Below, one piece after another: positions 33,303-64,000 of a DNA stretch of 64,000 nucleotides. The stretch spans positions 3,520,001 through 3,584,000 of the forward strand of contig OZ244048.1 of NCBI GenBank assembly GCA_965215265.1, written 5' to 3'. Under the pieces are notes generated by a model. It saw only the letters and a list, made by a program, of their open reading frames with translations, was not told where the DNA came from and did no database searches. This DNA comes from Candidatus Poribacteria bacterium. GTDB taxonomy: Bacteria > Poribacteria > WGA-4E > WGA-3G. Position 1 is the stretch's first letter, and every line of letters starts with the position of its first letter. The position numbers and the translations under genes were made by a program.

Positions 33303-34418
33303 ACCTAAGTTGCCAGCTATAAAAAAGTTGTAAATCCATGGGTTCTCCTTTATAGTGTTTATATCACAATAAAACCAAAGGAGCCCCCATGGACTTAACT
33401 ATTGTAGCAGTTTATACCCTTTGTGACGCTCCTTTACTCTCACTCGGACATCAAGAACATCTACAAACACAGATGACAGATGCAGAAGTGATGACTACCG
33501 CCCTTGTCGCCGCCAGAGACTTCGCAGGCACTCATCAAAATGCATGTTCTGCTTTGAAGACGCTCGGCTATATTCCAAATAGGCACCGAGCGTCTCGATA
33601 CAATCGTAGACTTCATCGAATCACACCGCTGTTTGAGGCACTCTTTGAACATCTCGCTCAAACCGCCAAAACGGAGAACGACAATAACATCTATTCGGTG
33701 GATACCTTTGCTGTCGCAGTCTGTGATAATATCCGTTTTTGTATATCTCCGTAAAGAATTGTCCCTGCTTGCAGGGTGAATTCTTGTCCGTCAACGCTTA
33801 TGATTTTGTTAAATCGTGTGTAAATTTCGTAGGAGATTCCCTTAGGCATAGCATAAAGCAAGCGGCTCTGGCGAGATTTTCACAGGGTTGTAAATAGCAG
33901 CAGCCTTTATTGGGCTGAAATATACGACATTTCTCGGTTTCGCAGGTATCAAGGCGAAGCCTACCTAGGGAAGATTGCCAGCAAACGGCGGCATTTCTAT
34001 GGGCTCAAAGTCCATCTGATGGTGTCTGAATCAGGGGCTATCGTTGAAGCTTTCTTCACACCGGGGAGCAGTAACGATGTGCTTGGCATGCGGTGTTATC
34101 GTTTTTACCTGCCTGCGGGTTCCGTGATGGACACCGATAAAGCATATTGCAACTATGCCATTGAAGATGCCCTGGGGGATATAGAGATTATGTTCAAACC
34201 GTTACGGAAGAAGAATGCCAAACGGCAGTATCCGCCGCCTGAAGTCTATCTACACCAGTCTTACAGAAAACGCGTTGAAGTGACAAAGAGTCTTGTTGAA
34301 AAACTCTTACCGAAGTCTATCCACGCGGTGGCGGCCCACGGATTTGAACTGAAACTTCTTTTATTTCTCATCGCCATAAATATAAAAATGCGATTTAAAG
34401 ATTCGTGGCAATCTAGGT
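33303..34418 (+). mobile_element. IS982-family element with its transposase interrupted by a 192-bp repeat insertion
   Basis: Imperfect terminal inverted repeats ACCTAAGTTGCCA / TGGCAATCTAGGT; MTDAEVMT, SRYNRR, VDTF, ASKRRHFYGLKVH, DKAY, RKRVE motifs; ORFs 33389 and 34019 are in one frame. Confidence 0.85.
33737..33928. repeat. Two back-to-back family-A repeats inserted in the transposase
   Basis: Minus-oriented unit from 33741 (with a nested hairpin) and plus-oriented 54-bp core 33872-33925; removing them restores VCDNIR-ISRFRRYQG. Confidence 0.85.
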
Positions 34419-34493
34419 TAATTTAATGTAAAAGGACACATAGCACAACGCTTAGCGTCTCAAAATCAGGATACGGAAGATAAAATCACAACG

Positions 34494-34567
34494 ATGTTAA
34501 CAATTGGTAACCTCCACATCCCCATTTTCCCCTCCTCCTTGCACCGATGGAAGATGTAAGCGATACG
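34494..34567 (+). pseudogene. 5' fragment of a tRNA-dihydrouridine synthase (dusB-like)
   Basis: MLTIGNLHIP[1-nt frameshift]FPLLLAPMEDVSD; similarity ends abruptly after that. Confidence 0.7.
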
Positions 34568-34762
34568 ATACGGCTGCGCACTCCTATTGTCCAATCGCAT
34601 CATAGAATTTCATCAGAATTTCTCCGATTGATTGCGGGTGCATTTGTTGTAACCTTAATGATACTTTTTATCTGTTAAGATTGCAAGAAAAAAAATGAGC
34701 AAACGTTGACTTTTTTGCATACGCGCCCCCAATTCGCATTTTTTTGCAGAAAATGTTAAAAA

Positions 34763-34900
34763 ATGATGATTTCTCCGAAAAAAAAGGATCTTTTGTTCGA
34801 CCCGGCTTGCATTTTTTTACGTCTTGTTCAGAAAAATGATCATTTTTCTGAAAAAACGGGTCTTTTGTTCGACCCGGCTTGCATTTTCCTACGTCTTGTT
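34763..34900 (+). repeat. Two-copy 72-bp tandem repeat upstream of the ECF sigma gene
   Basis: TCTTTTGTTCGACCCGGCTTGCATTTT..TACGTCTTGTT at 34789 and 34861. Confidence 0.85.
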
Positions 34901-35033
34901 ATTATGAAAGGCGCAGGAAAATACGAGCGAAAAATCGCCAAATGTGAAAAAACGGTGACTTCCTGCGACAAATTTAATCACTTGTAAGGTGGCGGGACAT
35001 ATTTCACTTTTTCCGACACCTTAAGAATAGCAC

Positions 35034-35618
35034 ATGGAACCTGAAACTTTGACAACGAATTCAGACACTCACTTACTTGAACGCATCCAAAAAGGGGACG
35101 ATACCGCCCTCGTAGCACTCATTGAAAGGTATAAACCTTTGATGATGACTATCGTGCGCGGTGAAGTCCCGGCTTATGCGGTAGAGGATGTGTATTTAGA
35201 TGCGCGTGCGGCGATGGTGGTTCGGTTTCGCAGGAATCCCGACGGCATCCGCACCGTGGACAAGTGGGTGAAGCAGGTGACGCGGAGCAAATGTCTCGAG
35301 TTCGGGCGGCAGCTTGCCAAAGAACAGGATGTGCGTGCTATTGCCGAAGACCTCTATAAAGCCGCAGAGGAGCGAGAGTTGCACCGGCATCTGTCTCGGG
35401 ACGTGCCTGATGAAGAAGAGGCGATGGCGGTTATCAAGGCACTAGGTTCCAAGTCTGTAGAAGTAGCCGTATTGCGTGCGGCGGGTTACACGTTGTCGGA
35501 GATAGGCAAACGGCTGAGAATTCCGAAGGACACGGCGAAGTCACGCTGGTGGAAGATTCGTGAGCGTGTTCATGAACATTTCGGATTGCCGTTTCCACCG
35601 AAAAACGAGAAGTCCTAA
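35034..35618 (+). CDS. ECF-type sigma-70 factor
   Basis: LLERIQKGD..ALVALIERY, VEDV, KW region 2; YTLSEIG..L.IP..TAKSR region 4. Confidence 0.8.
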   Translation: MEPETLTTNSDTHLLERIQKGDDTALVALIERYKPLMMTIVRGEVPAYAVEDVYLDARAAMVVRFRRNPDGIRTVDKWVKQVTRSKCLEFGRQLAKEQDVRAIAEDLYKAAEERELHRHLSRDVPDEEEAMAVIKALGSKSVEVAVLRAAGYTLSEIGKRLRIPKDTAKSRWWKIRERVHEHFGLPFPPKNEKS

Positions 35619-35785
35619 CGCGATTCAGGCTGCTTCCGGTTTATCCCTTTTTTGGATTCAAAAGGGGGAATGTATATTCACTTTCGTTGATTTATTTTGA
35701 TGCAGTGGACGTGTTATACTGAGTCACGGCGCCTCCTAATCAAAATGAGCGCTCTCATCTTTACCGTCCACAAGGAAAATCACTC

Positions 35786-36472
35786 ATGTTAAAGAACTAT
35801 TGGAAAACCGTCGCTGGTATGCTTCTCGTGCTGGTCCTCGGAGCGACAGGATATTTCCTCTGGTACCAACATCGGATGGCGCAGCTCCATGCGAACCCTG
35901 TCAAAATCTACAAGGGTACGATACGAGAAGCGACCGTGGTGCCAACCGCCACACCCTCTGCCGAGGCAGAGACTGTGCAAGGCGGGCATTGGCCTGGCGA
36001 GGAATGGCAGAGTGAATCACACACGATATCGCAACAGACAGATACTGTTGACACCATCGATACAACTGATGACACGATCGATACAGAGGAGATCGTTCCT
36101 TTTGAACCAACGGTTGAGGCGGATGTGCCTTGGGAAGAAACCGCAGAAGCCGAGCGGCTTTCACAGACATTGCTTCAGGATTGGAATGATTACTCCCAAA
36201 CTTTACTAGAGAAGTATCCAGCGATTTTTGATCCGGATGTACTTGAAAGAATGGCTCAGACTCAGGAGGGAAGAGCCTCGCTCAAATTACAAGCTGAATC
36301 TATGATAGAGGAGACTTTAGGTGAATTTGAGCGTCTGTTTAATCAACTTCCGAGAGAATTTGCACACGAAGTGCTTGATGTTTTGGAAGTTGAATTTCAA
36401 CAAAACCCACAAGGATTGCCCCCAGAATATATTCACCGAGCGCTAGGTAGAATGCGGGCAAGACTGAATTAA
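35786..36472 (+). CDS. Membrane-anchored or secreted acidic hypothetical protein
   Basis: N-terminal TM, low-complexity Thr/Asp/Glu linker, helical C-terminus; AAGGA RBS. Confidence 0.7.
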   Translation: MLKNYWKTVAGMLLVLVLGATGYFLWYQHRMAQLHANPVKIYKGTIREATVVPTATPSAEAETVQGGHWPGEEWQSESHTISQQTDTVDTIDTTDDTIDTEEIVPFEPTVEADVPWEETAEAERLSQTLLQDWNDYSQTLLEKYPAIFDPDVLERMAQTQEGRASLKLQAESMIEETLGEFERLFNQLPREFAHEVLDVLEVEFQQNPQGLPPEYIHRALGRMRARLN

Positions 36473-36482
36473 TGGAGGTTAT

Positions 36483-36956
36483 ATGATGATTAGAGATTTT
36501 CATAAGACAAAAACACGAAGAAGCCTGGGAGTCGGTCTGCTGATGGTTTTCATGATAATGATAACACTGTCCCCCGTTTTTTCCGACGACTGGAGAGATT
36601 GGGTGGGTCACGGCGTAGCGGTTGTTGGCCTAGGGGTGGCTGTCGCCGGTACAGCTGTGACATCCCCTGTATGGGGACCTGCACTTACTGTTGGTGGATT
36701 TTGTGCGGCCGCGGTCGGTATAGGTATAGGTATCTTGGATACAATGGATGACTCCGATGAGGATGAGACTTGTAGTCGTTGTAATGTGACATATGCACGA
36801 GGGACGGATCATTATTGTATATATGATCATATAGATGAAGAGCATGGCGGTGATGAGTCTTCCGAAGGCTCTTACGGTTATAGTACTGGGGGTTACGGCT
36901 ATTGCCCCAATGGTCATTATTATTCTGGAGTACATTCCTGTTACAGTAGTGATTAA
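36483..36956 (+). CDS. Secreted protein with a Gly/Ala-rich hydrophobic hairpin and a Cys/His-rich tail
   Basis: GGAGG RBS; signal peptide; GHGVAVVGLGVAVAG..GGFCAAAVGIGIG; CxxC..HxC and C..H..HxC motifs. Confidence 0.65.
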   Translation: MMIRDFHKTKTRRSLGVGLLMVFMIMITLSPVFSDDWRDWVGHGVAVVGLGVAVAGTAVTSPVWGPALTVGGFCAAAVGIGIGILDTMDDSDEDETCSRCNVTYARGTDHYCIYDHIDEEHGGDESSEGSYGYSTGGYGYCPNGHYYSGVHSCYSSD

Positions 36957-37047
36957 AGTCGTGAATAGTCGTGAGTTTACCTAGGTCGGGATGATTGCAC
37001 TTTTGGCTGCTTGTGCAAGTGACTTCGCCTGTACTCTTGCATCTATT

Positions 37048-37124
37048 GGCAGAAAAGAAAGATTTAAAAGTATACCTCTAAACATTTTCTTTAATGTTTA
37101 GAGGTATACTTTTTCTTTTTTGCC
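37048..37124. terminator. Long inverted repeat, probable bidirectional terminator
   Basis: Perfect 21-bp stem AAAAGTATACCTCTAAACATT / AATGTTTAGAGGTATACTTTT with flanking A and T runs. Confidence 0.7.
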
Positions 37125-37206
37125 TGGCTCAGTATATTACATTATTTATTCGGGCGGATTTCAGGTGACGCGGAGCAAGTGTCTCGATTTCGGGCGGCAT
37201 CTTGCC

Positions 37207-37326
37207 AATGGCACCATCGGCATAAACAACGCAGCGTAGGTACATGTCTTAATTATCGGGCTAGTGGTACTAGGCAACATCGTCTTCTTCATTCAGAAAG
37301 GACGACAGAAAAAGCAAAAACCTTGA
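37207..37326 (+). pseudogene. Diverged 3' remnant of a homolog of the gene at 4979-5794
   Basis: GTIGINNAA*VHVLIIGLVVLGNIVFFIQK versus GTEGINSASLVHMLILGLVVMGNVIFFIQR. Confidence 0.8.
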
Positions 37327-37409
37327 ATCGGCAGGAACGGATTGGGGCTTTACGGGGATGAGGCTTTCTGCGGTGATATTAACATCGTGTGCCTCTTTTC
37401 TTTTTAATA

Positions 37410-37464
37410 TGCTATAATTGCTATGTTTAATAAGATAGCAAAATAGTGTTTTTAAATTATAGCA
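37410..37464. promoter_or_regulatory. Nested palindromic operator/promoter upstream of the double-HTH gene
   Basis: TGCTATAATT...AATTATAGCA enclosing TTGCTAT...ATAGCAA; contains TG-n-TATAAT (extended -10). Confidence 0.5.
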
Positions 37465-37479
37465 GAATGGGGGTTTGAC

Positions 37480-38202
37480 ATGGCTCGCTTATCCATGATT
37501 GGAAATCATATTGAAAGTTTATTGTCTTTGTGTAAGAAGACACAAAAAATTGCGACGTTGTCGCGTGCGACGGGAGTCTCTGTGCATACGCTTTATCGCT
37601 GGCGTGATCGTGGGAAGTTAGAGGTATCAGGTCTTTATAGGGCTTTTTATGATGCGTTGACTTCGCCAGTAGGTGGCAGTAGCGGTGATGGCAAACTTGT
37701 AGAGCCGACGACGGCGAAAATTACATTAGAGCGAATAGATGCAATACTTGAAAAAGTCAAAATTGGCATGAGCTGGGATGCTATCGCACATGCTGTTGGG
37801 GTTTCGGCGGCGACGTTGTATCGGTGGATGCAGCGTGAGGGAACCGAACAGGCGGGGCTCTATCGCGAATTTTATGATAGGCTTGCTGAGTTGAAAATGA
37901 GTACAGAGTTATCTTTGATTGATTCGGTTATGAATAATGCTGTAGAAAGACAGGAGACTTTTACGAACAAGACGGTTACTAAAACAAAAGAGGGGAGGGT
38001 TGAATTTACATCAACCTCGAAGCCACCTAATGCTGAAATGGCTTTGAAAATGATGGAACGTATTAATCCTGTATTCTGGGCACCGATTGTGCCTCATCGT
38101 GTTGATGTTGATTGGGAGAAGACTGTGCGCGAGCAAGGTGGGGATCCGCGTGAGATTGAGGAGTTTGTTCGGTCGGAATTGGAGAAGGAGGGTTTAATTT
38201 AG
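37480..38202 (+). CDS. Double helix-turn-helix protein, terminase-small-subunit-like
   Basis: Two repeats (SRATGVSVHTLYRW..GLYRAFYD and AHAVGVSAATLYRW..GLYREFYD); beta hairpin, then PPNAEMALKMMERINPVFW. Confidence 0.6.
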   Translation: MARLSMIGNHIESLLSLCKKTQKIATLSRATGVSVHTLYRWRDRGKLEVSGLYRAFYDALTSPVGGSSGDGKLVEPTTAKITLERIDAILEKVKIGMSWDAIAHAVGVSAATLYRWMQREGTEQAGLYREFYDRLAELKMSTELSLIDSVMNNAVERQETFTNKTVTKTKEGRVEFTSTSKPPNAEMALKMMERINPVFWAPIVPHRVDVDWEKTVREQGGDPREIEEFVRSELEKEGLI

Positions 38203-38447
38203 AGTCAATGCATCGAACGGCTCAGACGAGATTTACACACGAGCTATCAAAACATAGATGTTGATGGTACGGAGATATAGAAATAAGCGTTGATTGGGAG
38301 AAAACGGTGCGGGATCAGGGTGGGGATCCTGCGGAGATTGAGGAGCTTGCGAGGAAGGTGATTGAGGAATCATAACCTAGTGAGGCTCAGACGAGATTTA
38401 CACACGAGTACCCACGACATAAGCGTTGATGGTACGGAGATATACGA
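38190..38447 (+). repeat. Two family-A repeats (cores 38227-38280 and 38392-38445) flanking a diverged duplicate of the HTH gene 3' end (38289-38375)
   Basis: VDWEKTVRDQGGDPAEIEELARKVIEES* versus VDWEKTVREQGGDPREIEEFVRSELEKEGLI*. Confidence 0.85.
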
Positions 38448-38453
38448 GAAGTC

Positions 38454-41400
38454 TTACTTAAGAACGACTATCTTCCCAACCTTTTGTTTTCGCTTATCGT
38501 CTTTACGTGCTGTGAACTTATAGAGATATACACCGTTTGCGAGCGGTTCTCCATCTGCATCTATGCCATCGTAGTGGAATTCGTTGTAAGAGACAGATGC
38601 ATCCAAGGTATCAATGGTAGAGATGAGGCGTCCGGTGAGGGTATAAATCTTGAGGCTGACCTGGTCAGCCCTTTCGGTGAGGTAATAGGCGAAATCAGTG
38701 CCGCGCCCGGGTCGGAAAGGATTGGGGAAATTCGCTATATTTTTAATTGCGAACTCGCCGGCTACGTTAGCTGTGTGCTCTGTGGAGGCGGGATTTCCGT
38801 TTGCATCTTGTGCTTGCAACCGGATGCGATATTCGCCTGCTTCTAAAACAGGTGTATAGGTTACGAGCAACACCCGGCTATTGACAGGTGACGAAGCGAT
38901 AACATACTCATCTTGTGGTACGCGCGCGCCGTTCTTCGTGATGAGAAGGTTTTCAGTCCGTGGATCTATTCCATTCGCATCCTCAATCCTCGCAGAGATA
39001 GTGGGGCTTTTGGAGACATAATCCCCATCAATAAAACCTTGATGTTCAACGGTCATCTCAAGTATGGGGGGGCGGGAATCTGCGTGGGATAACAGGGCAA
39101 ACGTCCCTGGCAGTGTAACTTGAGTTGAGATCTTCTCATCCGTGAGGGTTTCATTGCCGATGCGAATCCAATTGCGTGTCTCGGCATGGAGCATATAGAT
39201 GTGCGCGTCTGAATTTGCAGGTTTTATGAAGGAGGCTGTTGCCTTCAATTCGGCTGGCTCATTCACCGAAAAATGATAGGCTACGGAAGCATCTGCGACT
39301 GTTTCCCCGGAAGCATTTATCTCCACGATGGGAAAAATATCCGGCTGATTTGCAATGGATAATTCTCTTTGTTCAAACGTCATGACGGTGCTACTTTGAA
39401 GGCTTTCAGGCGAAACAGAGAGGTGCAAGGCCCCATCTACGCTTGTGATTTCGCGGTGTTTGGGTGTGAGCAGGATGCGATTGTTTTTAAACTGTCGTGC
39501 TGCGATGTTATTAAGTTCCCTGCGTTCAATAATATTCCCTTTTGGATGTGCTTGAGACGGCAGGTCAATAACAACCGTGACGAGGTAGTTTCCGAGTGGC
39601 GGCTGCCAGGGTACACTGACGATAACATGAGTCTCTGGTAGTACTTCCGCGAGCATCTGAACCTCGCCAATTTGAGTAGCATTTTGAAGTGCTTCAAGAG
39701 TCGGCGTGGTGGTTCCGGTATCTGCTTGTGTAGGCATTTGAAAAAAGTGCACCGATACATCTCGTGCGGGCATAGTGGCTCGGTTGCGGATTTGCGCCGA
39801 AAGTGTAAAGGGAGGTTCTATGTTCCAAGCAATCGTTTCCTGCAAAATCGTTAAGTCAACGTCAATCAAACCGAATTCATAAGTTTCTATTTCTGTTTGA
39901 AAGGTTTTCCCGCCGCGCACTTCGACTTCCAAGTAGTAGTCAATCAATTCTCTTGCCGGATAACCAGGGATCGGCTGCTCGCTTCTATAGGTTGAACCCG
40001 TGTGTTGGACAACCGGGATTGTTTCAAATTCAAAACCATCTAAGCTCCAAAAGAGTGTCATTGCTTCAATATCATTCTTGTTTCGCACCTCTGTGTAAAG
40101 ATGTACAGGTTGTTCTGGTTCAACGGGGTAAGGGACAATTCGGACGTTATCAAGGTATCGTTGTAGTGCATTATAATTTGCGTAACCGATGGCATCTTCC
40201 TCAGTGTTCCATGCGTAGGCTTGTATGTTTCCGTTATCAAATTGGCTATTCGCTGGCAGTAGGATTTCCGTGGTGAATTGTCCATTTACGACAGGGACAG
40301 TTTCTCGTTCTGGGGGTGGAGGTTCTATTTCTGTATCTCTTGAAGACTGGAGCGATCTTGGGAAGACAACAATTTCTGCGTTTCCGGTAAAATTGTGGTT
40401 GGCGAGTGCGCCGGAAACCATCATCGAGGTTTGATCTATATCTGCTGTTAGCTTCATCTGTGTATGCGGCAATCTGAGCTGAGTTGCGGGATCCCCGAAG
40501 AGTGTGAAAACTTCGGCGAGGTCAAAATAACTCGGTGCGTTAATAAGAAATAGCGTTTTGGCTTCGGCGAGGATGGCCCCAATATGCGATGTCTTATCCT
40601 TAAAGATAACGTCAAAAATAGCGCGATTGAGAATATAGTCTCCATCTAGCAATCCGATGCTGGTTCCGCCAATGACTGCAATAGCACCTCCATTTTGTGA
40701 GCGTAGCAATTCCTCAGCAAGGCAGCTGCTGTTACCATCAAAGTGAGCTGTGTAACAAGTCATACTGATAACAAAGGGGAGTTGCGCGATATTGGTTAGG
40801 TTCTGTTCAGGATCTTCCAGATCTAGCATGCGAGAAGATGACCAGACACCGCCGGCGCCATGGCCGATATAGTTAACAATGCTGACACCGTCATTGAATG
40901 CATCAATCACTTGTCTACCAACAAACAGATTGTTCTGCTCGCTAGCCGTTTCGGTTTGTGTAATTGGGGCATAGATGGGCGTAATTTCATATTTGGAACG
41001 GATCTCATTCTGTTTAAGCAGCCCCTCGGTTTGGCTGTGAAACCGCCAATCTGTGCCGGCGAGCATGAGGAGTCGCTTCTGCCAGGGGCCGATCTCGGCG
41101 TTGGTTTCATAGTTAATGGCATGCTCAACGAATGTCCGCACGTCAACGCGATTGGTTGCAGGTATCCTTCCAATGAGCATATCAGGAAAACTATCGTCGC
41201 CTCTGAAGGTTACGAATTGATGGTCGCTGGCACTTGAGCCGTATCCTGGAATTTGCACTTGTATCGTGGGTACAAAATTAGGGTGTGTTTTGGGACTGTT
41301 ATGCGTATCTCCTACCAGAAACACGTAGGTTGGCGCAGGGGGCTGCCAATTTTGGTAGGCATATTTAAGGAATTCTCTAACGGCGTACGGATTGACAATA

Positions 41401-43481: not shown

Positions 43482-43487
43482 ACTTTT

Positions 43488-43766
43488 ATATATTTCCGTA
43501 CCATAAAGGGTTATGTTGTGTTAAATCCGATGTAGATCTCGTCGGAGGTTCCTGATGTAATGAATCTAAACCTAGAAGAGCTCAGACGAGTGGCAGGATA
43601 GGTAAGTTTACGAAACGAAATTGAGGGTGGTGCCCGCCCACCCGAATCCTTCTTTGTTTCTCCTGAAACCTGAGGTCAATACCTTACCCGTCAACCCAAT
43701 GGGTGGCGAGTAAAAGGTAGTGATAGCGTGTCCTTCAGGACTCGCGATACTACCTATCTCGCCACT
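43488..43766. repeat. Family-A core (43488-43541) followed by a nested family-B palindrome cluster
   Basis: 54-bp core plus extension; GTGGCAGGATAGGTA, CCCACCCGAATCC, CCCAATGGG, GCGTGTCC..GGACTCGC motifs. Confidence 0.8.
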
Positions 43767-44370
43767 AATTTCGGGCGAGGTGGTAAACTTCAATCTCCCG
43801 GAGTTGGGCGATTGCAGGCTGTACGACTCGATAGTGCGGGTAGTACTGGCCGGCAAGTGTTGTGCGCCGGTCTAATACTTTATCGCCGGGCTCGGCAATA
43901 ATTTTGTTAACGATGATATCATCCACAGTGCGAGTGACGGTTACCCGAAGCATCTGGGTTTGAAAGTTCAATCGATCAAAGACGAACGTCGGTTGGGCAC
44001 TTTCTCCATCGAGATTGCGTCGCTGGATGATGGAATCAAAGGTTTCCCATTCACCGGTCTCCTCATTCAAATAGTCCATCTCGAACCGGAACAAGTTTCC
44101 GTTGTGGATGATAATTTTTCGTACTGGCTTGATTTCAGCAAATCGAATGATAAAGTTCCGATCATTTCGAGCTGGGAGAGTCGCTAAAGTTTCAACATTA
44201 CCGTCGTTTAAGCCGGGGTGGTTCGCTTCTGTGCCGTAATTTGTGAGGGCCATGTTTTCGCTGTACCGGGTTGATAAAACCTCAACGATTCTACAAGCGT
44301 TGAGTTGTAAGCAGATAATTAGAAGCCACAAAAGTATCACGGACTGGTATGCACTGCTACGGGGTACCAT
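43765..44370 (-). CDS. Putative lipoprotein with a discoidin/galactose-binding-like fold
   Basis: LNAC lipobox, N.AL..LNDG, LREIEVY; GAGGAG RBS before ATG 44370. Confidence 0.6.
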   Translation of the reverse strand: MVPRSSAYQSVILLWLLIICLQLNACRIVEVLSTRYSENMALTNYGTEANHPGLNDGNVETLATLPARNDRNFIIRFAEIKPVRKIIIHNGNLFRFEMDYLNEETGEWETFDSIIQRRNLDGESAQPTFVFDRLNFQTQMLRVTVTRTVDDIIVNKIIAEPGDKVLDRRTTLAGQYYPHYRVVQPAIAQLREIEVYHLARN

Positions 44371-44384
44371 TTTTTTCTCCTCTA

Positions 44385-44645
44385 TTTTCGTATACTGGAG
44401 CCCCATCAACGTCTCTGTTTTGATAACTCGTGTGTAAATCTCGCCAGAGCCATTCTAGGTTATGATTCTTCAATAACTTTTTTATTTTCGTATACTGGAG
44501 CCCCATCAACGTCTCTGTTTTGATAACTCGTGTGTAAATCTCGCCTTTTTCGTATATCTCCGTACCATCAACGCTTAGGTATTGACAGCTCGTGTGTAAA
44601 TCTCGTCGGAGATTCCTTAGGTTATGATTCTTCAATAACTTTTCT
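44385..44645 (-). repeat. Three tandem family-A units (cores 44390, 44490, 44552)
   Basis: The first two cores are identical at 100-bp spacing; the third is diverged; extensions GGTTATGATTCTTCAATAAC. Confidence 0.9.
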
Positions 44646-44797
44646 ATTTTTAGTCACGGTCGGGTTGGTGTGAATGTTCCATCGATTCATCGTGTTAGAG
44701 ACTTTAAACAGATTACGTTTTTCTGTATCTCTCCGTAAAGAAGTTCTCCCTGCAAGTGGCAGGATAGGTATGGCTCCCACCCACCCAAATCCTTGAG

Positions 44798-45070
44798 TTA
44801 GCCTGCAACATCAAACCGGTCTACGATACCCATCACAAGTTCACGGATAGGGGCATTCTCAACCCCGAAGACTTCTTGTGCAACGCCGGGGCCTGCTCCA
44901 ACAATTACCGTGTCACCTTCACCGGCACCAACGTAATCAACAGCAATCGTTGGCGTACGGACTACCTCGGATTTTAGGCTTAGTGGTTGGATGAGCAGCA
45001 GTGTGCGATTTTGATACGCAGAATGCTTAATAACTGAAACAACTTTGCCAATGACTTTTGCTAGGTACAT
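44798..45070 (-). CDS. EutN/CcmL bacterial microcompartment vertex protein
   Basis: MYLAKVIGKVVS..K..LLIQP..AVD.VGAG.GD.V..GIVD. Confidence 0.9.
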   Translation of the reverse strand: MYLAKVIGKVVSVIKHSAYQNRTLLLIQPLSLKSEVVRTPTIAVDYVGAGEGDTVIVGAGPGVAQEVFGVENAPIRELVMGIVDRFDVAG

Positions 45071-45115
45071 GTTTAGAATTTAGTTAATCGGATTGGACAG
45101 CATTTCTTCGTTTCT

Positions 45116-45198
45116 GTATATCTCCGTACCATCATCACTTATGTCACGATGTCTTATATGTAAATCTCGTCAGAGCCATTTGATGTATTGACTCTAAA
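45116..45198 (-). repeat. Family-A unit (core 45116-45169)
   Basis: GTATATCTCCGTACCATC...TGTAAATCTCG plus extension. Confidence 0.85.
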
Positions 45199-45236
45199 CA
45201 TCATCCGTTGGTTGAAGGTGGTATTGGTTCAGTCTC

Positions 45237-45515
45237 CTATGGTGTATCATGCAAGGAGATAGAATCTACAATGCCAACAATTGCGACATCTACCGGCATC
45301 CGTTTACCAGGTAAAACCCCTGCAGCATCACCGCCGGTGACTATGTAGACTGTTTCGCCGATTCCTGCATCTTGTAAGGTATCCACTGCAACAATTGGTG
45401 TCGAAATGGGGTTGCGTTTTTGGTCCAAAGGTTGCACGAGGAGGAGACGGGTCCCCTCTAAGCTAGGATGTTTTCGGGTTGCAATGACGGTGCCGATGAC
45501 TTTTGCTATATCCAT
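45237..45515 (-). CDS. EutN/CcmL bacterial microcompartment vertex protein
   Basis: AKVIGTVIATRKH..LLVQP..AVD..AGIGE.V..PVDVAIVGIVD. Confidence 0.92.
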   Translation of the reverse strand: MDIAKVIGTVIATRKHPSLEGTRLLLVQPLDQKRNPISTPIVAVDTLQDAGIGETVYIVTGGDAAGVLPGKRMPVDVAIVGIVDSISLHDTP

Positions 45516-45583
45516 TAGTGTTATCTTCCAATGATATAATTCATTTTTTATCTGCTTTGCTTCAGTCTATCTGGAGAAAATTT

Positions 45584-45727
45584 GTATATCTCCGTACCAT
45601 CACGCTTTATGCTTTGTTAATGACAGTGTAAATCTCGTCTTTTTGTATATCTCCGTACCATCAACGTCTGTGTTTTGATGAGCCGTGTGTAAATCCCGTC
45701 GGAGATATCTTAGGTATAGCATAAAAA
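45584..45727 (-). repeat. Two tandem family-A cores (45584-45637, 45645-45698)
   Basis: Two diverged 54-bp cores joined by a T-run. Confidence 0.88.
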
Positions 45728-45751
45728 TGTATCTGGGATAGGCGATAGCGA

Positions 45752-47194: not shown

Positions 47195-47200
47195 TTTTTT

Positions 47201-47345
47201 GTATATCTCCGTACCATCAACGTCTAGGTAATGATAGCTCGTGTGTAAATCTCGTTTTTTTGTATATTTCAGCCCGATAACGCCTGATGTATTGTCAATG
47301 ACTGTGTAAATCTCGTCGGAACCGTTCGATGTATTGTCTCTAAGA
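47201..47345 (-). repeat. Two tandem family-A cores (47201-47254, 47262-47315) between the kinase and the regulator
   Basis: 54-bp cores; GGAGATATACAAAAAA runs straight into the regulator ATG. Confidence 0.9.
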
Positions 47346-50158: not shown

Positions 50159-50250
50159 GATTTGTCTCCGCCCACCCGCCCAATTCCTTCAAGTGTTTAA
50201 TATGTTTTAGTACTGTGAGCTGCTGATGTTTTTGTACTAAACCGCTTTTT

Positions 50251-50279
50251 GTATATTTCAGCCCGATAACGCCTGATGT
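50251..50279 (-). repeat. Truncated family-A unit (3' end only)
   Basis: GTATATTTCAGCCCGATAACGCCTGATGT, identical to the starts at 47262 and 63362. Confidence 0.8.
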
Positions 50280-50307
50280 TCAGTTTCGTATAGTCTCGTG
50301 CTATAAT

Positions 50308-51591: not shown

Positions 51592-51598
51592 TTTTTCT

Positions 51599-51840
51599 GT
51601 ATATCTCCGTACCGTCAACACCCAGTCGGTTGCGAGATCCCCGCCATCTATAGATAAAAGGTAGTGCAAGCGTGTCCTGAAGGACACGCGATGGGGATTC
51701 ATCCCCGCAAGCGGGGAGTTGCGAGATAGGTATTCAGTGTCTCTCCTGAAAGGAGAGACAAAGAATTCCTTTTACTCGCAACCCATTGGGAACTTCCCCT
51801 ACCTATCCTGCCACTCGTCAGGGCCTTCCTAGGTTCAGTT
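51599..51840. repeat. Family-A unit split by a family-B palindrome cluster
   Basis: GTATATCTCCGTACCGTCAAC at the left, CTCGTCAGGGCC..CTAGGTT at the right; hairpins GCGTGTCC/GGACACGC, CCCCGC/GCGGGG and GTCTCTCCT/AGGAGAGAC in between. Confidence 0.8.
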
Positions 51841-51952: not shown

Positions 51953-52624
51953 TTAATAGAATCCATGTTGTGCTAAGAACGCCATATCAAGCTGTCCGGA
52001 TTGATTTCGGTTTTTCTTCTGGCTGGAGAGTTCTGTTCTTGCTAACAACAGCGCCTCGACGTAGCGTGCAATCACATCTACTTCAAGATTGACACGTGCC
52101 CCTTCTCTTTTTGTCCCCAAAGTTGTAACCGACTTTGTGTGTGGAATTAAAGCGACTTCAAAGGTGTCGGCGAATACGTTCGCTATTGTTAAACTCACGC
52201 CGTCAACGGAAACAGAACCTTTATAGGCTATGTAAGGCTTAACATCTGCGTTCATTGTCACCTGCATAAGAGAGGAATCGCCTTCATCCTTCCATCCACT
52301 AATTACAACGACTGCATCAACATGCCCGAGGACGAGATGGCCTCCTAACCGCTGGCTCAACTGTAGAGAACGTTCTAAGTTAGCCCGGTCGCGAGGTTTT
52401 CGGTCTCCCAATGTTGTCCGACGTAGCGTTTCGGCAGAAATATCGGAGATGAATCCATCTGCCAACAATGCACGAATAGTAAGGCAGGCACCATCAACGG
52501 CAATGCTATCCCCTACTTTCGCGTCTGCGAGTACTTCAGTTGCCCTAATGTGAAGGGTCGCGCTTTGGGATGTACGTTTGATGTTAACAATAGTACCAAT
52601 CTCTTCAACGATTCCGGTAAACAT
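51953..52624 (-). CDS. ribE: Riboflavin synthase alpha chain
   Basis: MFTGIVEE, GACLT, GGHLVLGHVD, NLEVD. Confidence 0.95.
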   Translation of the reverse strand: MFTGIVEEIGTIVNIKRTSQSATLHIRATEVLADAKVGDSIAVDGACLTIRALLADGFISDISAETLRRTTLGDRKPRDRANLERSLQLSQRLGGHLVLGHVDAVVVISGWKDEGDSSLMQVTMNADVKPYIAYKGSVSVDGVSLTIANVFADTFEVALIPHTKSVTTLGTKREGARVNLEVDVIARYVEALLLARTELSSQKKNRNQSGQLDMAFLAQHGFY

Positions 52625-52691: not shown

Positions 52692-52797
52692 AGTGGCAGG
52701 ATAGGTAGGGGAAGTTCTCCCCGCTTGCGGGGATGAATCCCCATCGCGTGTCCTCGAGGACACGCGATACTACCTTTTACCTGCCACCCACTGGGTA
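52692..52797. repeat. Family-B palindromic element overlapping the ribD stop
   Basis: GTGGCAGGATAGGTA...TACCTTTTACCTGCCAC arms; perfect 26-bp palindrome ATCGCGTGTCCTCGAGGACACGCGAT at 52743-52768. Confidence 0.85.
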
Positions 52798-55679: not shown

Positions 55680-55693
55680 ATCCGGTTATCTCT

Positions 55694-57309: not shown

Positions 57310-57386
57310 TTGGAAAGGTACCGCCTTTACAGGTACTTGTATTGTAGTGAATCTATCCTGTTATAAGCCTTTTACCTTTATCAAGT

Positions 57387-58685: not shown

Positions 58686-58688
58686 TTT

Positions 58689-59864
58689 CTATAATGCCTT
58701 TAAGCCGATACCTGTGAGGATTGAAACCGTCAATTCACCCTCGCTAATGATACCGGTGTCGCGAAACTTTTCAGACGCTTTGACGACTACAGCGGAAGTT
58801 GGTTCAACGTAAAGCCCCCGGGTTGCAAGGATTTTCAGTCCAGACTTGATGTCGGCTTCGTCAACAGTGATAAATGCCCCGTTCGTGTCACGGATTGCGT
58901 CCATAATCATTTTCCTGCGAATAGGCAGTTCCGCTGTAATTCCTTCAGCAAGCGTCGTCCGCGTTTGTACCATCCGAGAAATATCAGATGTTTTACTAAG
59001 GTAAGCGTTATAAATCGGACAACACGCTGCGGATTGAACACCGAGTAAGTGGGGGAACTGTTCAATAACACCTTGTACGTGCAATTCGCGAAATCCGAGG
59101 TACAAACCCAGGTAAATACTGCCGAATCCGACAGGACAGATAACGTGAACCGGTGCCTTTCCGCCTAATTGCTCAACAATCTCAAATGCTAAGGTCTTTG
59201 TGCCTTCTAAGAAGAACGGGTGCCAATTATGAGAAGCATAACATGTCGTTTCTGCTGCATACTTTACTGCTTCTGTTGTTGCCATGCGATTGCCTTCTAC
59301 TAGCTCCAATTCAGCACCATACGCGGAGATCTGGGTTAATTTGCTTTTTGAAGTAGTTTTCGGACAGTAAATAGTACACCGGATGCCCGCACGGGCACTG
59401 TAGGCAGCTATTGCTGCGCCGGCATTTCCGGACGAATCCTCAACAATCTCTTCAACGCCGAGTGCCTTCAAATGGGTTAGTAACACAGAAGCCCCCCGGT
59501 CTTTATAGGAACCTGTGGGGCAGAGGTAGTCCAGTTTCACATAGTGTTCTGCAGTATTCGTTCCTACTGTGGAACGTAGGCTTGCGTTTTGTCCATAACT
59601 TGCTGCATCAAAGGGTATCAACGGTGTCATTCCTTCGCCGAGTGTTACGATTTCGGCATCCGTAGGAATTGGGAGTGCTTCACGATACCGCCACATGCTG
59701 TGTTCATGGGGTGCCTCTTGTTTTCGGAATATGGGTTTGGAGGTTTCGTATTCCGGCTTTTCAAGCGTCAACGGTGAACTACAGTCACACTGATAGCGTA
59801 ATGCCGACACTGGATATGTTTGAGCACATTGGCTGCAGATATTTCGCAAAACGTATTTTTCCAT
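58689..59864 (-). CDS. thrC: Threonine synthase-like PLP enzyme
   Basis: TLGEGMTPL, PTGSYKDRG, SSGNAG, EG.KT, EPTSA, TG.GLK. Confidence 0.8.
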   Translation of the reverse strand: MEKYVLRNICSQCAQTYPVSALRYQCDCSSPLTLEKPEYETSKPIFRKQEAPHEHSMWRYREALPIPTDAEIVTLGEGMTPLIPFDAASYGQNASLRSTVGTNTAEHYVKLDYLCPTGSYKDRGASVLLTHLKALGVEEIVEDSSGNAGAAIAAYSARAGIRCTIYCPKTTSKSKLTQISAYGAELELVEGNRMATTEAVKYAAETTCYASHNWHPFFLEGTKTLAFEIVEQLGGKAPVHVICPVGFGSIYLGLYLGFRELHVQGVIEQFPHLLGVQSAACCPIYNAYLSKTSDISRMVQTRTTLAEGITAELPIRRKMIMDAIRDTNGAFITVDEADIKSGLKILATRGLYVEPTSAVVVKASEKFRDTGIISEGELTVSILTGIGLKAL

Positions 59865-59916
59865 ACTGCCTTATTCAGGACTATGGGACCCCAAAAGTCG
59901 AAAATTCATGAATTGG

Positions 59917-60939
59917 CTAGACAGACGCGACCTTCTCCTCATCCCAAGGTAAAGGAATACCGAGTCTTTCACTAACAGCCCGCGCCGACGCTTGTTCCAT
60001 CTCCCCGTATCGGATTCCGTCCTGTCTGTGAAGTTCTGTCTGCTCCAGTTCGATGGCACCTGGAAGAAGTGCCTTATCTGTCCCGGGCATCGGTTCATAG
60101 GTATTGCGTACATCACGTACCAGTCGATCGACTTCAGCATGAAAGAGACCTGGAGAGACAACCGATGCAATATCTATCGCTAATACCATTCCGCCCATGC
60201 GTCCTCCGCTCCACTGGGCGGTGTCTTCCGGGGGTGCTTCCGTGAATCCGGTCAGTGCGCCGCCGAGGAGGCACGCGATAGCGGTGTAACCGATACTCTT
60301 GAAAAAAGCTGCAGGAATAAGTGAAAGCAAGGCATCAAAATCGGGGCCGCGCTGGTAGTCTGCCATGATACATGTCGCTGCATCAAGTACAACAGGCGGT
60401 TCATCTCCGGAGGGGATAGCGAAACAGATCGGCGGGTTCCCGTAGTAGCCGAGTTGCGGCTTCGGTTCTTGATTTTGGGCGTTGCCGTGCTTCTGATAAC
60501 CTTGTACCGAGAAACCGATGCATCCGGCTTCATTGCAGATTCGTGCATAATGTCCGGCGGAGCCGTAATGCCCAATATAGCGTACCAAGCCCATCCCAAT
60601 GCCGACTTCTTTGGCTTTAGCAATAGCGTGTTCGGTTGCGCGTACCATCGGAAGATAGCCAAGTGTCCCGTTTCCATCAAGTACAACAGTCGTTGGAGTT
60701 TCATGGAGAGTCCGGATATCAGGGCGCGGATTGTGGCTCCCGTTTTCAAAGCCGCTACAATAACCGCTCACTGTCCGTGTACCGTGACTACGGACACCAC
60801 GCAAATCGGAATTTACCAGCAGACGGCTAATAAGGGTGGCGTGCGCCTGCGTGAGCCCTACTTTTTCAAAGCAAGCTGTGCTGAAGTTGAGCAGCCGTTC
60901 TTCGTCGACACGAACAAAGGTTTCTGGCGGTTTATTCAT
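59917..60939 (-). CDS. Ldh_2 family (malate/L-lactate/ureidoglycolate) dehydrogenase
   Basis: DLRGVRSHG, LDG...G, HYG, GNPP, LDAAT, LPG. Confidence 0.85.
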   Translation of the reverse strand: MNKPPETFVRVDEERLLNFSTACFEKVGLTQAHATLISRLLVNSDLRGVRSHGTRTVSGYCSGFENGSHNPRPDIRTLHETPTTVVLDGNGTLGYLPMVRATEHAIAKAKEVGIGMGLVRYIGHYGSAGHYARICNEAGCIGFSVQGYQKHGNAQNQEPKPQLGYYGNPPICFAIPSGDEPPVVLDAATCIMADYQRGPDFDALLSLIPAAFFKSIGYTAIACLLGGALTGFTEAPPEDTAQWSGGRMGGMVLAIDIASVVSPGLFHAEVDRLVRDVRNTYEPMPGTDKALLPGAIELEQTELHRQDGIRYGEMEQASARAVSERLGIPLPWDEEKVASV

Positions 60940-61278
60940 CTTTGTCTCCTTTTCTGTCTCTGCGAGCGATAAGACAAGATTGACATGCGTGTCCCGCTGC
61001 CCATCTCATCAGAGACATTTCGGCTCATACGTTTATGGCTCCAGATTTAGTTCTTTCTTTTATTTAACGTTTCTGCTACAATTTATCAGAACTGTTAGGA
61101 AATATTAACAGACATATTCCGGTGTATTAGGTTAACGCCGCCGTAAAGCAAACAACTTTTAGTCAGGTTACCGGACTAATCTATTATTATTATCCTTTAA
61201 TTCGTAAGGATTGTCAAGAAATTTTACAAGATCTGACATAGAGCGAAACTTGCAAGTTTTCCATTATTGAAAAAAACT

Positions 61279-62034
61279 ATGGCATTAATCACAGTAATAG
61301 GGCGAGGTCACTCGGGGACGCGTGCCATTTCTCATACATTATACGCGAGCGGGGTCTTCATGGGCAATCAGTTGAATCCGTCCGGAGATAAGATTCCACC
61401 GCATGAGATGTACGATGCTTGCCGTGTCATCGCACAATACGTCACTTGGAAGGGTGGACTCTGTTGGGATTTTGATGCACTGTTTACTATGCCGATCGAT
61501 CCAGAATTTAAGCGTCTAATCAATGCATATTTATCAGATGTCTTCCGGAGTTCATCTGCTAACAAAGGCTGGAAGATTCCAGAAACGACGCTTGTCTACC
61601 CGTGGATAGCCCGGATGTTTCCGCAGATAAAGTTTATCCATTGGATTCGCGATCCGAGGGATTGTATCCGTGGTGCACACAAAACGGACGATTTGCGTAA
61701 ATTTGGTATTAATTACCCGCGAACTGATAATGTCTATGAAATGCGGGCGATTTCTTGGTACTATCAATATCAGTTGATGAAAGCAACACTGACTCCTGAA
61801 AACGTCATTCAAATCCGATTTGAAGATTTTGTTTTGAAACAGGAAGAGACGCTCAAACGGCTCGAGACATTTCTAGGGATTCCGCTGGGACGGATTGTCG
61901 TGCGGCAAGACGCTGTCGGGCGCTGGAAAGGTGATCTTGTTGATGGAGCATTTTTACTTCCCTACGATTTTGAATTCCTTGAACCAGCAATCGTGGAAAA
62001 TGGCTATCCAACCACAGCCAATTTTACCGCGTAG
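61279..62034 (+). CDS. Sulfotransferase family protein
   Basis: GRGHSGT PAPS-binding loop, WKIP, IRDPRD, RFEDF. Confidence 0.8.
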   Translation: MALITVIGRGHSGTRAISHTLYASGVFMGNQLNPSGDKIPPHEMYDACRVIAQYVTWKGGLCWDFDALFTMPIDPEFKRLINAYLSDVFRSSSANKGWKIPETTLVYPWIARMFPQIKFIHWIRDPRDCIRGAHKTDDLRKFGINYPRTDNVYEMRAISWYYQYQLMKATLTPENVIQIRFEDFVLKQEETLKRLETFLGIPLGRIVVRQDAVGRWKGDLVDGAFLLPYDFEFLEPAIVENGYPTTANFTA

Positions 62035-62054
62035 CGAGAAAAGAAGGACGAAAC

Positions 62055-63080
62055 ATGTCAAAAAACAGTAATTACCGTGTTGGACTTGTCGGCACCGGCG
62101 GTATCGCCCGGGCACACGGCAAGGCATGTCAATTGGCAGAACATGCCGAATTGGCTGCGATTTGTGATGTATCGGAGCAGGCATTAGCCAATTTCGGTGA
62201 GCAGTTTGAAGTGGCTACTGATAACCGGTACCTCTGTTTAGATGAGATGTTGGCATCTGAAAATTTGGACATTGCAATTATCTGTACTTGGGGTGCCTAT
62301 CACGCTGAAACCGGTATTCAGATAGCTGAGTCCAGAGCGGTTAAGGCGATTTTGTGTGAAAAACCGTTCACTTCAACAGCAGCAGAAGCAGAGGCTTTTG
62401 TAGATGCGGCACAGGCCAATGGAGTGCTCGTCGCGGAGGCCTTCAAGTTCCGGCACCATCCGATGCACCTCAAAGCGAAGGAACTCATCGATTCAGGTGC
62501 AATCGGTGATTTTATGACGCTGCGCAGTACTTTCTGTACAGGTGGTGGTGGCGGCGGTCCAGAGAAACGTCGACCTGAGGCGAATTGGCGGTTCAACAAA
62601 GCAAAAGGGGGCGGTAGTATCTACGACCTCGGTTGTTACTGCATCCACCATGCACGTTTTATGTTTGATGCTGAACCGATTCGGGTTTCGGGTGCGTCGC
62701 AAGCCGGATTAGAAGTCGACGATGCGGCGTATCTACTCTTAGTTTTCCCCGGTAACCGCACTGCGCAGCTCTCTGTCGGCTTTAATTGCGCCGGAGGACA
62801 GTACGTGGAAATGTCCGGTACCGGTGGCATGTGCAGGCTCGACCGGGTGTGGAACAATGAAGATTCTCCTGTTAACATAGAATTGACCACGCGAAATGGA
62901 CACGAAGTCATTGATATTGAACCATGTTTTCAGTTTGCATTACAATTAGAGCATATGTGTGAATGTCTCGCGACAGGAAAACCACATCGTATTTCACCAG
63001 AGAGTTGTGTAAATCAGATGCGGGTCATTGATGCTGCCTTTGAAGCCATGGCAACAGGCAGAACGGTCGAATTGGGTTAG
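62055..63080 (+). CDS. Gfo/Idh/MocA oxidoreductase
   Basis: GTGGIA, CEKP, GGGSIYDLGCY. Confidence 0.9.
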   Translation: MSKNSNYRVGLVGTGGIARAHGKACQLAEHAELAAICDVSEQALANFGEQFEVATDNRYLCLDEMLASENLDIAIICTWGAYHAETGIQIAESRAVKAILCEKPFTSTAAEAEAFVDAAQANGVLVAEAFKFRHHPMHLKAKELIDSGAIGDFMTLRSTFCTGGGGGGPEKRRPEANWRFNKAKGGGSIYDLGCYCIHHARFMFDAEPIRVSGASQAGLEVDDAAYLLLVFPGNRTAQLSVGFNCAGGQYVEMSGTGGMCRLDRVWNNEDSPVNIELTTRNGHEVIDIEPCFQFALQLEHMCECLATGKPHRISPESCVNQMRVIDAAFEAMATGRTVELG

Positions 63081-63148
63081 GTTCCCCAGAACTATGGTAG
63101 TCGGCGAGTGAGCACGTCAGAGCTCACCCACGGAAAATATGTCTATTC

Positions 63149-63231
63149 GTATATCTCCGTACCATCAACCTCTATGTTTTGATAGCTCGTGTATAAATCT
63201 CGTCTGAGCCTCTTGATGTTTTGTCTCTAAA
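63149..63231 (-). repeat. Family-A unit (core 63149-63202)
   Basis: Near-identical to the reverse complement of 38200-38280. Confidence 0.88.
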
Positions 63232-63258
63232 TAGAGAGAAGAGAGAGATGAACAGATT

Positions 63259-64000
63259 ATGGCACATTTTTCTGATATTAAAGTCCTTACGTTTGACTTA
63301 TTCGGAACGATTTTAGACCTCGGTAGTAGCCTTACACCGTTTATTGAAGAATCATTTTTTTGTATATTTCAGCCCGATAACGCCTGATGTATTGTCAATG
63401 ACTGTATAAATCTCGTCTGAGCTTCTTGATGTTTTGACTCTAAATTAAACCCGCCTTAACTGTGCGCGGGGCCAACGTATCGCCGGGTACATTTTGGGAA
63501 CAGTGGCGGTACCGTCAGCGGATTGAGCAATATCAGGACACGATTACGATGCTTGGGCATAGCGGTTATTTAGAAACAGTGCGTCGTGCCTTGCACTATA
63601 CACTGAGAGGCAACGGTGTTGATGCCTCCCCCGAGACTGTAGAAGAATTTATGCAAGGTTGGCATCACCTTTCTCCATTTCAAGAAGTTTTAGTAGCCCT
63701 CAAACGTTTGCAAATTCGCTATCAGTTAGTCGTGCTCTCCAACGGGGATGCGGATTTTTTAGCTTACCTCGTTAGCGAAAGGGTTGATTGGCAATTTGAT
63801 CAGGTAATTTCGGTTACATCCTTCGGCGCGTTTAAACCGCATCCGGCTGTCTACCGCGGTGCTGCTGGAAAACTTGGTGTTGATGTCAACGCGTGCATGA
63901 TGGTATCGGCAAATTCGTTTGACATCATGGGGGCGCGGGCGTGTGGGTACAAAGGTGCATTTGTAAACCGCTATCGCCTACCCTATGAGGATACCCTTTA
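63259..64000 (+). pseudogene. Haloacid dehalogenase type II, interrupted by a family-A insertion (about 63355-63455); runs off window
   Basis: FDLFGTILD motif I, then after the insert WEQWRYRQ..LSNG..FKPHPAVY..VSANSFDIMGA; removing 101 bp restores the frame. Confidence 0.85.

Follow-up and report, generated by a model that had tools for sequence, protein, structure and literature searches.

A short, length-locked repeat family dispersed through the intergenic DNA of a Poribacteria genome is probably a non-autonomous mobile element

A stretch of 64,000 nucleotides (nt) from a Candidatus Poribacteria bacterium (assembly GCA_965215265.1, contig OZ244048.1, positions 3,520,001 to 3,584,000; here called the window) carries many copies of a short dispersed repeat, family A, and raises the question what this repeat is: a mobile element, a signal serving the host or a binding site for a protein. 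A sequence-only reading of the window had proposed an actively spreading non-autonomous element or a phased protein-binding site. Poribacteria are uncultured, sponge-associated bacteria, and we know of no description of their mobile DNA or gene-expression signals; a literature search that covered only the top-ranked part of many papers gave nothing on Poribacteria repeats. The host genome (G000) is a single contig of 4.83 Mb with 48% GC and is 95% complete by marker genes. Our preferred answer, to which we assign a probability of about 0.6, is that family A is a lineage-specific, modular, non-autonomous mobile repeat, a selfish element multiplied through intergenic DNA.

With at most one mismatch, CGAGATTTAC matches the window 18 times (4.0 expected; none of 100 shuffles reached 18) and GGAGATATAC 16 times (2.4 expected; none of 100 shuffles reached the observed number). 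All 14 intact cores listed by the sequence-only reading were found again, three on the forward strand (33872, 38227 and 38392) and 11 on the reverse strand. Owing to the latter, most copies show the CGAG...ATAC orientation of that reading when the window is reverse-complemented. A regular expression recovered 12 of the 14 cores, and the remaining two (44390 and 44490), which carry a variant 3' box, were recovered by repeat finding and nhmmer. The partial copies were found as well: a palindromic insert of about 32 nt breaks up the one at 33741, and those at 44725, 50251 and 51599 are 3'-terminal fragments. In the first 33 kb of the window nhmmer found no copy of family A. The copies are not an assembly artefact, as contigs of four runs from four studies reach into the same copies and cover the copy edges. 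Nine sequencing runs contain half or more of the sampled words from the window stretch that was searched, and no RNA run was listed as containing it.

The core has a fixed length of 54 nt: in an alignment of 77 cores from the window and six other loci, 76 fitted 54 columns without a gap. A profile hidden Markov model of 94 positions was built from 290 regular-expression matches and run genome-wide with nhmmer; 564 of the 701 matches showed no net length difference to the model and 98 were off by 1 nt. In 116 isolated units conservation extends from position -29/-28 through the core to RAAAA at positions 55-59 and is gone beyond position 60, and the flanks are informationless. The unit therefore comprises about 88 nt: a leader of 28-29 nt, the core of 54 nt and the RAAAA tail. 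Both the extension upstream of the core and the fixed 3' end, which had been noted in the window, are therefore real. The boundaries of these isolated units are sharp, with neither a conserved target nor a repeat in the flanks. The leader starts with TTWAGA and contains TCAAAACATA (consensus of the 116 units TTWAGAnTCAWAACAT...GGCTCYGA). Judged by the span of the model, 344-360 matches are full, 86 are core-only and about 130 are otherwise 5'-truncated, in agreement with the variable 5' extent described before; about 100 matches are 3'-truncated.

The internal periodicity was seen, too. The GAGATWTAC boxes are 44 nt apart, GACAATACATC recurs at a distance of 42 nt, and four WTACA motifs follow each other at about 22 nt. 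The leader together with box 1 is similar to core positions 17-54 (TCAAAACATA, 12-14 nt and CGRAGATWTAC, in this order). The unit is therefore an old internal duplication of about 44 nt, which accounts for both periodicities. Box 1 is the best-conserved and least mutated segment of the unit. Leader and core subtypes assort independently; relative to the subfamily consensus, a mismatch of 0.26-0.30 is found for the leader and one of 0.04-0.08 for the core. Numerous units are chimeric or truncated, some of them fused to other repeat families, and many copies have almost the same sequence, as recent bursts would leave them. The copies are spread over the whole chromosome and their variable middles can be sorted into a small number of recurrent subfamilies, so that the exclusion of a CRISPR array was correct.

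Single units have neither terminal inverted repeats nor a hairpin, as had been stated. RNAalifold returned an empty consensus structure for 129 diverse units on both strands and for 77 cores, and 40 folded units gave mean z values of -0.28 (sense) and +0.04 (antisense), i.e. no stable hairpin like that of repetitive extragenic palindromic (REP) sequences. Rfam gave no match at the gathering score over the 64 kb, and a single chance match (E=1) over 4 kb at E up to 1. An attC-type fold was not found in the units, and their distribution is dispersed rather than in cassette arrays. A helix between leader CTCCG and core CGGAG, which would hide the Shine-Dalgarno sequence, was ruled out, since leader base -3 and core base 45 vary independently. 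Within the core, the pairs 13:35, 14:34 and 15:33 are complementary in 82% of cells compared to 61.5% after shuffling (none of 500 shuffles reached the observed value; slid controls 18-55%), and pair 14:34 alternates between CG (30) and GC (20). These changes follow the subfamilies and therefore represent few independent events; they may be weak signs of a single-stranded form.

Genome-wide, nhmmer detected 701 copies, 590 of them at E<1e-5, and with 103 head-to-head doublets the family goes far beyond what had been noted in the window. In total the copies make up 52.5 kb, corresponding to 1.09% of the genome and to 6.6% of the crude non-coding DNA, the coding share being taken from crude open reading frame (ORF) calls. 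Only 14.5% of the element bases lie in such ORFs compared to 86% coding DNA genome-wide. Copy density is uneven along the chromosome. Spacers between co-directional genes contain 389 units in sense and 182 in antisense orientation (about 2:1), and 84 units lie in convergent spacers. Divergent spacers are under-represented, with 46 of 701 units (6.6%) compared to 12% of all spacers. The genome was also looked at for a replication-strand bias of the units; it has no clear GC-skew replichores.

The family is confined to one lineage. The core pattern has 172 matches in the host genome and five in G001, the only genome of the same genus in our comparison. The 157 other genomes of the order have one match (five genomes) or none (152 genomes), and the five single matches resemble hits by chance or in coding sequence. 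With BLAST, 30 relatives yielded only two weak matches, both in G001; searches of plasmid and phage collections yielded none. The NtrC-like regulator encoded in the window reached at best 45% identity in metagenome contigs, so no close strain was found there. The five matches in G001 form one tandem array with an exact period of 61 nt, in which CGAGATT, CTGAAA, AC and the A-run are common and the rest has diverged. Shared frame and period indicate that the family is older than the split of the two species, and that the burst took place only in G000. At the syntenic locus of 43-52 kb (about 80% DNA identity) five spacers of G001 are shorter than those of G000, and four G001 spacers read directly contain no family A unit where G000 has eleven. 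Family A is a real, abundant, lineage-specific dispersed repeat. The ribBA leader of G001 (G001:C1:919070-919260) consists of ATATAC, 4 nt and the ATG and resembles the 3'-terminal family A fragment in front of ribBA in G000; judged by its sequence, it may be left over from before the two species separated.

Units are found alone, in tandem on the same strand (106 neighbouring pairs no more than 5 nt apart; periods of 61, 87/88 or 122 nt) and in head-to-head doublets with inverted outer ends and two outward-facing 3' ends. The 103 overlapping head-to-head pairs compare with only six tail-to-tail pairs; single units and tandem arrays outnumber the doublets. The two arms of a doublet usually come from different subfamilies. 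As single-stranded DNA, one doublet folds around a 14-bp stem formed by AAATCTCGTCGGAG and its complement (z = -2.8). [quoted passage not shown]

That units have inserted is evident from paralogous sites. Both flanks of 448 element clusters were compared with the rest of the genome, yielding pairs of filled and empty sites. A single unit at 2303314 was inserted cleanly with regard to an empty paralog, a doublet at 817242-817395 with regard to two, and another single unit was inserted at 1693467, which has five empty paralogs; none of these sites shows a target-site duplication (TSD). In the window, a doublet splits the ORF of an IS982-like transposase (33389-34426) between the codons for ...CDNIR and ISRF..., again without duplication. 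Altogether, no TSD was found at 116 isolated units, at 12 long forms with a gene fragment as 5' extension, at the filled and empty sites or at the IS982-like site. Furthermore, a shortened, internally deleted doublet with one identical junction is present at three loci with unrelated flanks, indicating that a piece bounded by two outward 3' ends was copied as a unit. The position of unit 5' ends relative to upstream stop codons has a flat distribution, i.e. there is no relation. An intact copy of the IS982-like element is absent from the genome, which contains only fragments at 3346865 and 4468099.

The 3' end also has a particular relation to genes. In 125 of 581 units the 3' end is followed within 20 nt by the start of an ORF of at least 80 amino acids, compared to 22 of 581 in the antisense control, and about 450 of the 581 units do not adjoin a start codon. 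Seventy-six units have the ATG of an ORF of at least 100 amino acids within 12 nt, and in 36 of them it lies exactly 6 nt after the core (d=6); d=5 and d=7 account for seven and six cases, respectively, and there is a trough at 9-10. The 36 genes are unrelated and their units belong to several subfamilies, some being 5'-truncated. By a manual count, 26 of these 36 starts (72%) read ATGA, compared to 45% A at position +4 genome-wide. In view of the height of the peak, purifying selection acting on random insertions can explain the trough and not the peak. Either insertions with this spacing were favoured or integration is targeted. In G001 the genes of the NtrC-like regulator and of a 1675-amino-acid protein use the same ATGs without any unit; the ATG therefore belongs to the target. 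Native genes of the host have a Shine-Dalgarno sequence of the GGAG type, mostly starting at -11.

What was observed directly is the number of copies, their anatomy, the restriction to one lineage and the insertion at paralogous sites, and our preferred reading is built on these. According to it, the 3' end is the part that all copies keep, the two outward 3' ends of a doublet act like the inverted ends of a MITE, and integration leaves no TSD. Secondarily, the 3' end with its GGAG, ATATAC and A-run may have been co-opted as ribosome-binding leader of some 60-75 genes, which would explain the 2:1 preference for gene orientation as well as the copies abutting start codons.

Several observations weigh against this reading. 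The accumulation of starts at d=6 is about 8-9 times the per-position baseline, and at this spacing the GGAG of the unit starts at -16, 5 nt beyond the native optimum, so that from its position it should be usable and not optimal. Two filled sites are replacements of about 40 nt (795086) and 7 nt (1416028) and not pure insertions. The array in G001, diverged as it is, has kept the 61-nt phase and the CGAGATT...CTGAAA...AC frame, and the core pairs 14:34 and 15:33 covary. Taken together, start-codon spacing, conserved frame and covariation are a hint of constraint beyond selfish spread. A classical MITE mechanism cannot account for the movement of single units, whose ends are not inverted. A cognate transposase was not found, the domains PF01797, PF01548 and PF07282 being absent from the host genome. 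Finally, contigs of the four DNA runs stop at the repeats, where presence/absence polymorphism among strains could not be read, so that current activity of the element is a possibility. Of the earlier wording, "spreading" and "non-autonomous" are supported by copy number, empty sites, the insertion into the IS982-like gene and the copied doublet, and "actively" goes beyond these observations.

The search for an enzyme that moves the units gave the following results. A Y1 transposase of the RAYT type (PF01797) had no match in the host genome and was matched in six of 14 control genomes. Profile searches detected neither an IS110-type DEDD enzyme nor a TnpB gene in the host genome. The IS91-type Y2 profile (PF04986) gave no match in the host genome and none in the control genomes either. 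The only reverse transcriptase of the host belongs to a canonical diversity-generating retroelement (DGR) cassette. This cassette (1416737-1420944) contains two paralogous targets of the formylglycine-generating-enzyme type, an Avd-like gene of 118 amino acids and a reverse transcriptase of 354 amino acids. None of 226 long repeat regions ends in the unit termini, as a parent insertion sequence (IS) would, and a loose 12-mer search for IS elements with matching ends gave counts near chance. An element of about 2.5 kb, present in about ten copies (e.g. 547900-550121), contains an apparently frameshifted N6/N4 DNA methyltransferase gene and a family A doublet near one end. It is the only long element carrying a doublet, and it encodes a DNA methylase and not a transposase.

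One gene of the window is linked to family A in a peculiar way. The 240-amino-acid protein whose gene ends at 38202 contains two helix-turn-helix (HTH) motifs, and its residues 79-236 match a wide family of proteins of 160-190 amino acids that score as small terminase subunits of phages. The window holds the only full copy of this gene in the genome. Fragments of its 3' part are found at 12 further loci with differing 5' ends (starts at 1-32 of a 78-nt probe), and ten of the 12 are followed, no more than 60 nt further on, by a full unit in the same orientation. In an alignment read by eye, the fragments differ mostly at third codon positions. Two readings fit these data: decayed paralogs each carrying a unit, or 3'-anchored copies from a master locus. 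Neither a large terminase nor another phage gene lies beside the gene, and a search of genome contigs with the protein found no relative. Upstream of the gene, a 47-nt piece of an ECF sigma-factor gene is duplicated (35274-35320 and 37162-37208 of the window, 94% identity).

Four other explanations were considered. Family A could be mainly a cis-acting leader of the host, a 5'-UTR RNA module kept by selection, with spread being secondary. The fixed distance of 6 nt to the ATG in 36 of 76 close starts, in unrelated genes and irrespective of subfamily and 5' truncation, the excess of ATGA, the 2:1 sense bias, the low mutation of box 1, the covariation at 14:34 and 15:33 and the 61-nt frame conserved in G001 all speak for it. 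Such a function leaves unexplained the antisense copies in co-directional spacers and the 84 copies in convergent ones, the roughly 450 units away from start codons, the many near-identical copies and the doublet inside a transposase gene. Moreover, orthologous genes of G001 manage without a unit, there is neither a consensus RNA structure nor an Rfam match, a helix sequestering the Shine-Dalgarno sequence shows no covariation, and the GGAG is placed 5 nt too far from the d=6 starts. We therefore regard this explanation as unlikely. Somewhat further down in probability we place a 3'-anchored copying from a master locus consisting of the terminase-like gene and its downstream unit, by rolling-circle replication, one-ended transposition or reverse transcription. 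It would account for the 12 fragments with differing 5' ends followed in ten cases by a full unit, for the single full gene copy, and for the series of 5' truncations with fixed RAAAA tail and no TSD. Target-primed reverse transcription, however, would be expected to leave TSDs at the long forms and a variable poly(A) rather than a tail fixed at 5 nt, and the sole reverse transcriptase belongs to the DGR cassette. A Y1 gene is absent and an IS91-type Y2 gene was not detected (the controls gave no match, too), the third-position differences fit decayed paralogs equally well, and about 100 3'-truncated matches are not predicted.

Alternatively, the boxes might be phased binding sites of a protein, either of the terminase-like HTH protein in the manner of a pac or cos site, or of a nucleoid protein. 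Small terminases bind repeated sites in or beside their own gene, and here the terminase-like gene is always directly followed by a unit, the GAGATWTAC and WTACA motifs are regularly spaced at 44 and about 22 nt, and box 1 is the best-conserved segment. However, phage genes including a large terminase are missing next to the gene, compensatory changes at 14:34 and 15:33 would not be predicted, and orientation bias and ATG spacing would stay unexplained, so that we consider it very unlikely. A role as promoter module, with ATATAC as a -10-like box for mRNAs with short or no leader, appears highly improbable to us. The d=6 accumulation does place TATACR at -11 to -6, and a fixed distance between -10 box and ATG is typical of leaderless genes. 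On the other hand, a consensus scan for sigma-70 promoters and terminators came up empty within the units, the final T of the box is missing, no TTG-like -35 element stands at the right distance, and units are depleted in the divergent spacers. TATAC is not positionally enriched in front of 2082 genes without a unit, and the native Shine-Dalgarno signal implies that leaderless starts are not the rule. A bolder idea, which we mention as a long shot, combines several of these features: an undescribed, TSD-less and 3'-end-anchored mechanism might place units, oriented like the gene, 0-2 nt upstream of start codons, the master copy being the 3' end of a domesticated terminase-like gene whose HTH protein would recognise CTCCGACGAGATTTAC. 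Family A would then be a start-codon-seeking mobile leader cassette.

Following the preferred reading of a selfish mobile repeat, family A is best filed with BOX, REPIN and MITE sequences, yet it fails the defining tests of each, since TSD, parent IS, RAYT and unit hairpin are all missing. BOX elements of Streptococcus pneumoniae (boxA-boxB(n)-boxC), BIMEs and ERIC sequences are short modular intergenic repeats with hundreds of copies and no transposase of their own, which are co-transcribed with their neighbours and may affect them. Family A is likewise short, non-coding, modular, intergenic, capable of forming tandems and present in hundreds of copies without its own transposase. It differs from them in having no sequence similarity, in the lack of complementary ends in single units, in the core locked at 54 nt with a 61-nt tandem phase kept in the sister species, in the 3' end abutting start codons at a fixed distance, and in its host phylum, Poribacteria. 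With REPINs, which are inverted REP doublets mobilised by RAYT Y1 transposases, it shares the absence of TSDs, the intergenic location, the species-specific expansion and doublets whose fold is a long, imperfect hairpin. Replication in the form of inverted doublets, which is a mark of REPINs, is seen in the insertion at 817242 and in the deleted doublet at three loci. In contrast to REPINs, the unit is not a palindrome of 20-40 nt (z about 0), no RAYT/Y1 gene is present, the arms mostly come from different subfamilies, and singles and tandems are more frequent than doublets.

MITE-like features are the small size, the high copy number, the non-autonomous nature, doublets with inverted outer ends, the copied internally deleted derivative and insertions between genes and in one transposase gene. 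Unlike MITEs, family A lacks a TSD at the filled and empty sites that were inspected, a parent IS sharing its ends was not detected, and single units insert cleanly although their ends are not inverted. Elements of the IS200/IS605 and IS91 groups resemble it in their asymmetric ends, absent TSD, defined orientation and in one end being fixed while the other varies, and the pairs 14:34 and 15:33 would fit their single-stranded form. Strong subterminal hairpins and a conserved target tetranucleotide are lacking in family A, TnpA(Y1) and TnpB are not encoded, and an IS91-type gene was not detected, with the reservation about the controls given above. A SINE-like retroposon differs by the fixed RAAAA tail of family A, the missing TSD at the 12 long forms and the restriction of reverse transcriptase to the DGR. 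Unusual in family A are the length lock across species, the ATG at a fixed distance and the link to a terminase-like gene. The copies in the window and the genes adjoining them are listed in Table 1.

Table 1. Family A copies in the window and associated genes (window positions).
Position	Strand	Feature
33736..33853	-	Unit, antisense; core split by palindromic mini-insert of about 32 nt; left arm of doublet in IS982-like transposase ORF
33851..33927	+	Unit of the GCTGAAATATAC subfamily; right arm of doublet inside transposase ORF
37480..38202	+	Small-terminase-like double-HTH gene, 240 amino acids; stop codon TAG inside leader of next unit
38197..38283	+	Full unit, leader and core
38285..38361	+	Duplicated 3' fragment of terminase-like gene (5' extension of a long form)
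38362..38449	+	Full unit
43484..43571	-	Full unit; ATG (43481) of gene for 1675-amino-acid surface protein 6 nt after core
44385..44473	-	Full unit, CTCCAGTATAC variant; followed by ATG at 44370, 19 nt downstream
44485..44545	-	Core-only unit, in tandem
44546..44635	-	Full unit; first of a tandem group of three units
44720..44740	-	3'-terminal unit fragment, adjoining another repeat family
45111..45199	-	Full unit between two EutN/CcmL genes; site empty in congener
45581..45639	-	Core-only unit
45639..45728	-	Full unit, in tandem with core-only unit 45581..45639
47195..47255	-	Core-only unit; ATG (47194) of NtrC-like regulator gene 6 nt after core
47256..47345	-	Full unit directly after stop codon of histidine kinase gene; 42-nt internal repeat visible
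50246..50283	-	3' fragment, model positions 55-92
51592..51619	-	3'-terminal fragment, 7 nt upstream of ribBA ATG (51591)
63145..63233	-	Full unit, antisense to both flanking genes
63356..63445	-	Full unit, antisense to both flanking genes

Some further observations concern the surroundings of these copies. The palindrome of about 32 nt nested in units at 33755-33786 has the form AAGAATT..CCCTGC..GCAGGG..AATTCTT, and a similar one is found at 44735-44770; it looks like a second repeat family of the hairpin type. The strains in the four sequencing runs show a 1-nt difference in the A/T-run between tandem units at 44544-44545 and a 4-nt indel at the doublet junction at 33856. The two tandem genes at 44798-45070 and 45237-45515 encode EutN/CcmL microcompartment vertex proteins, and each is preceded by a short ORF (seven and eight codons, read by eye) between the unit and the ATG of the gene. 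The riboflavin synthase gene (51953-52624) is bracketed by a 49-nt inverted repeat (51670-51718 and 52717-52765, 96% complementary), and related GCGTGTCC..GGACACGC hairpins are located at 43711, 51655 and 52731.

For work with these genomes, family A means that short-read assemblies break at each copy, and its profile provides a species marker as well as a caution for gene callers and binning tools. For the organism, it means that dozens of genes take the stretch directly in front of their start codon from a repeat. Should the fixed spacing to the ATG stem from the specificity of integration, target choice of this kind would be new; should it stem from selection, family A would be a clear example from nature of a selfish repeat put to use as a translation leader.

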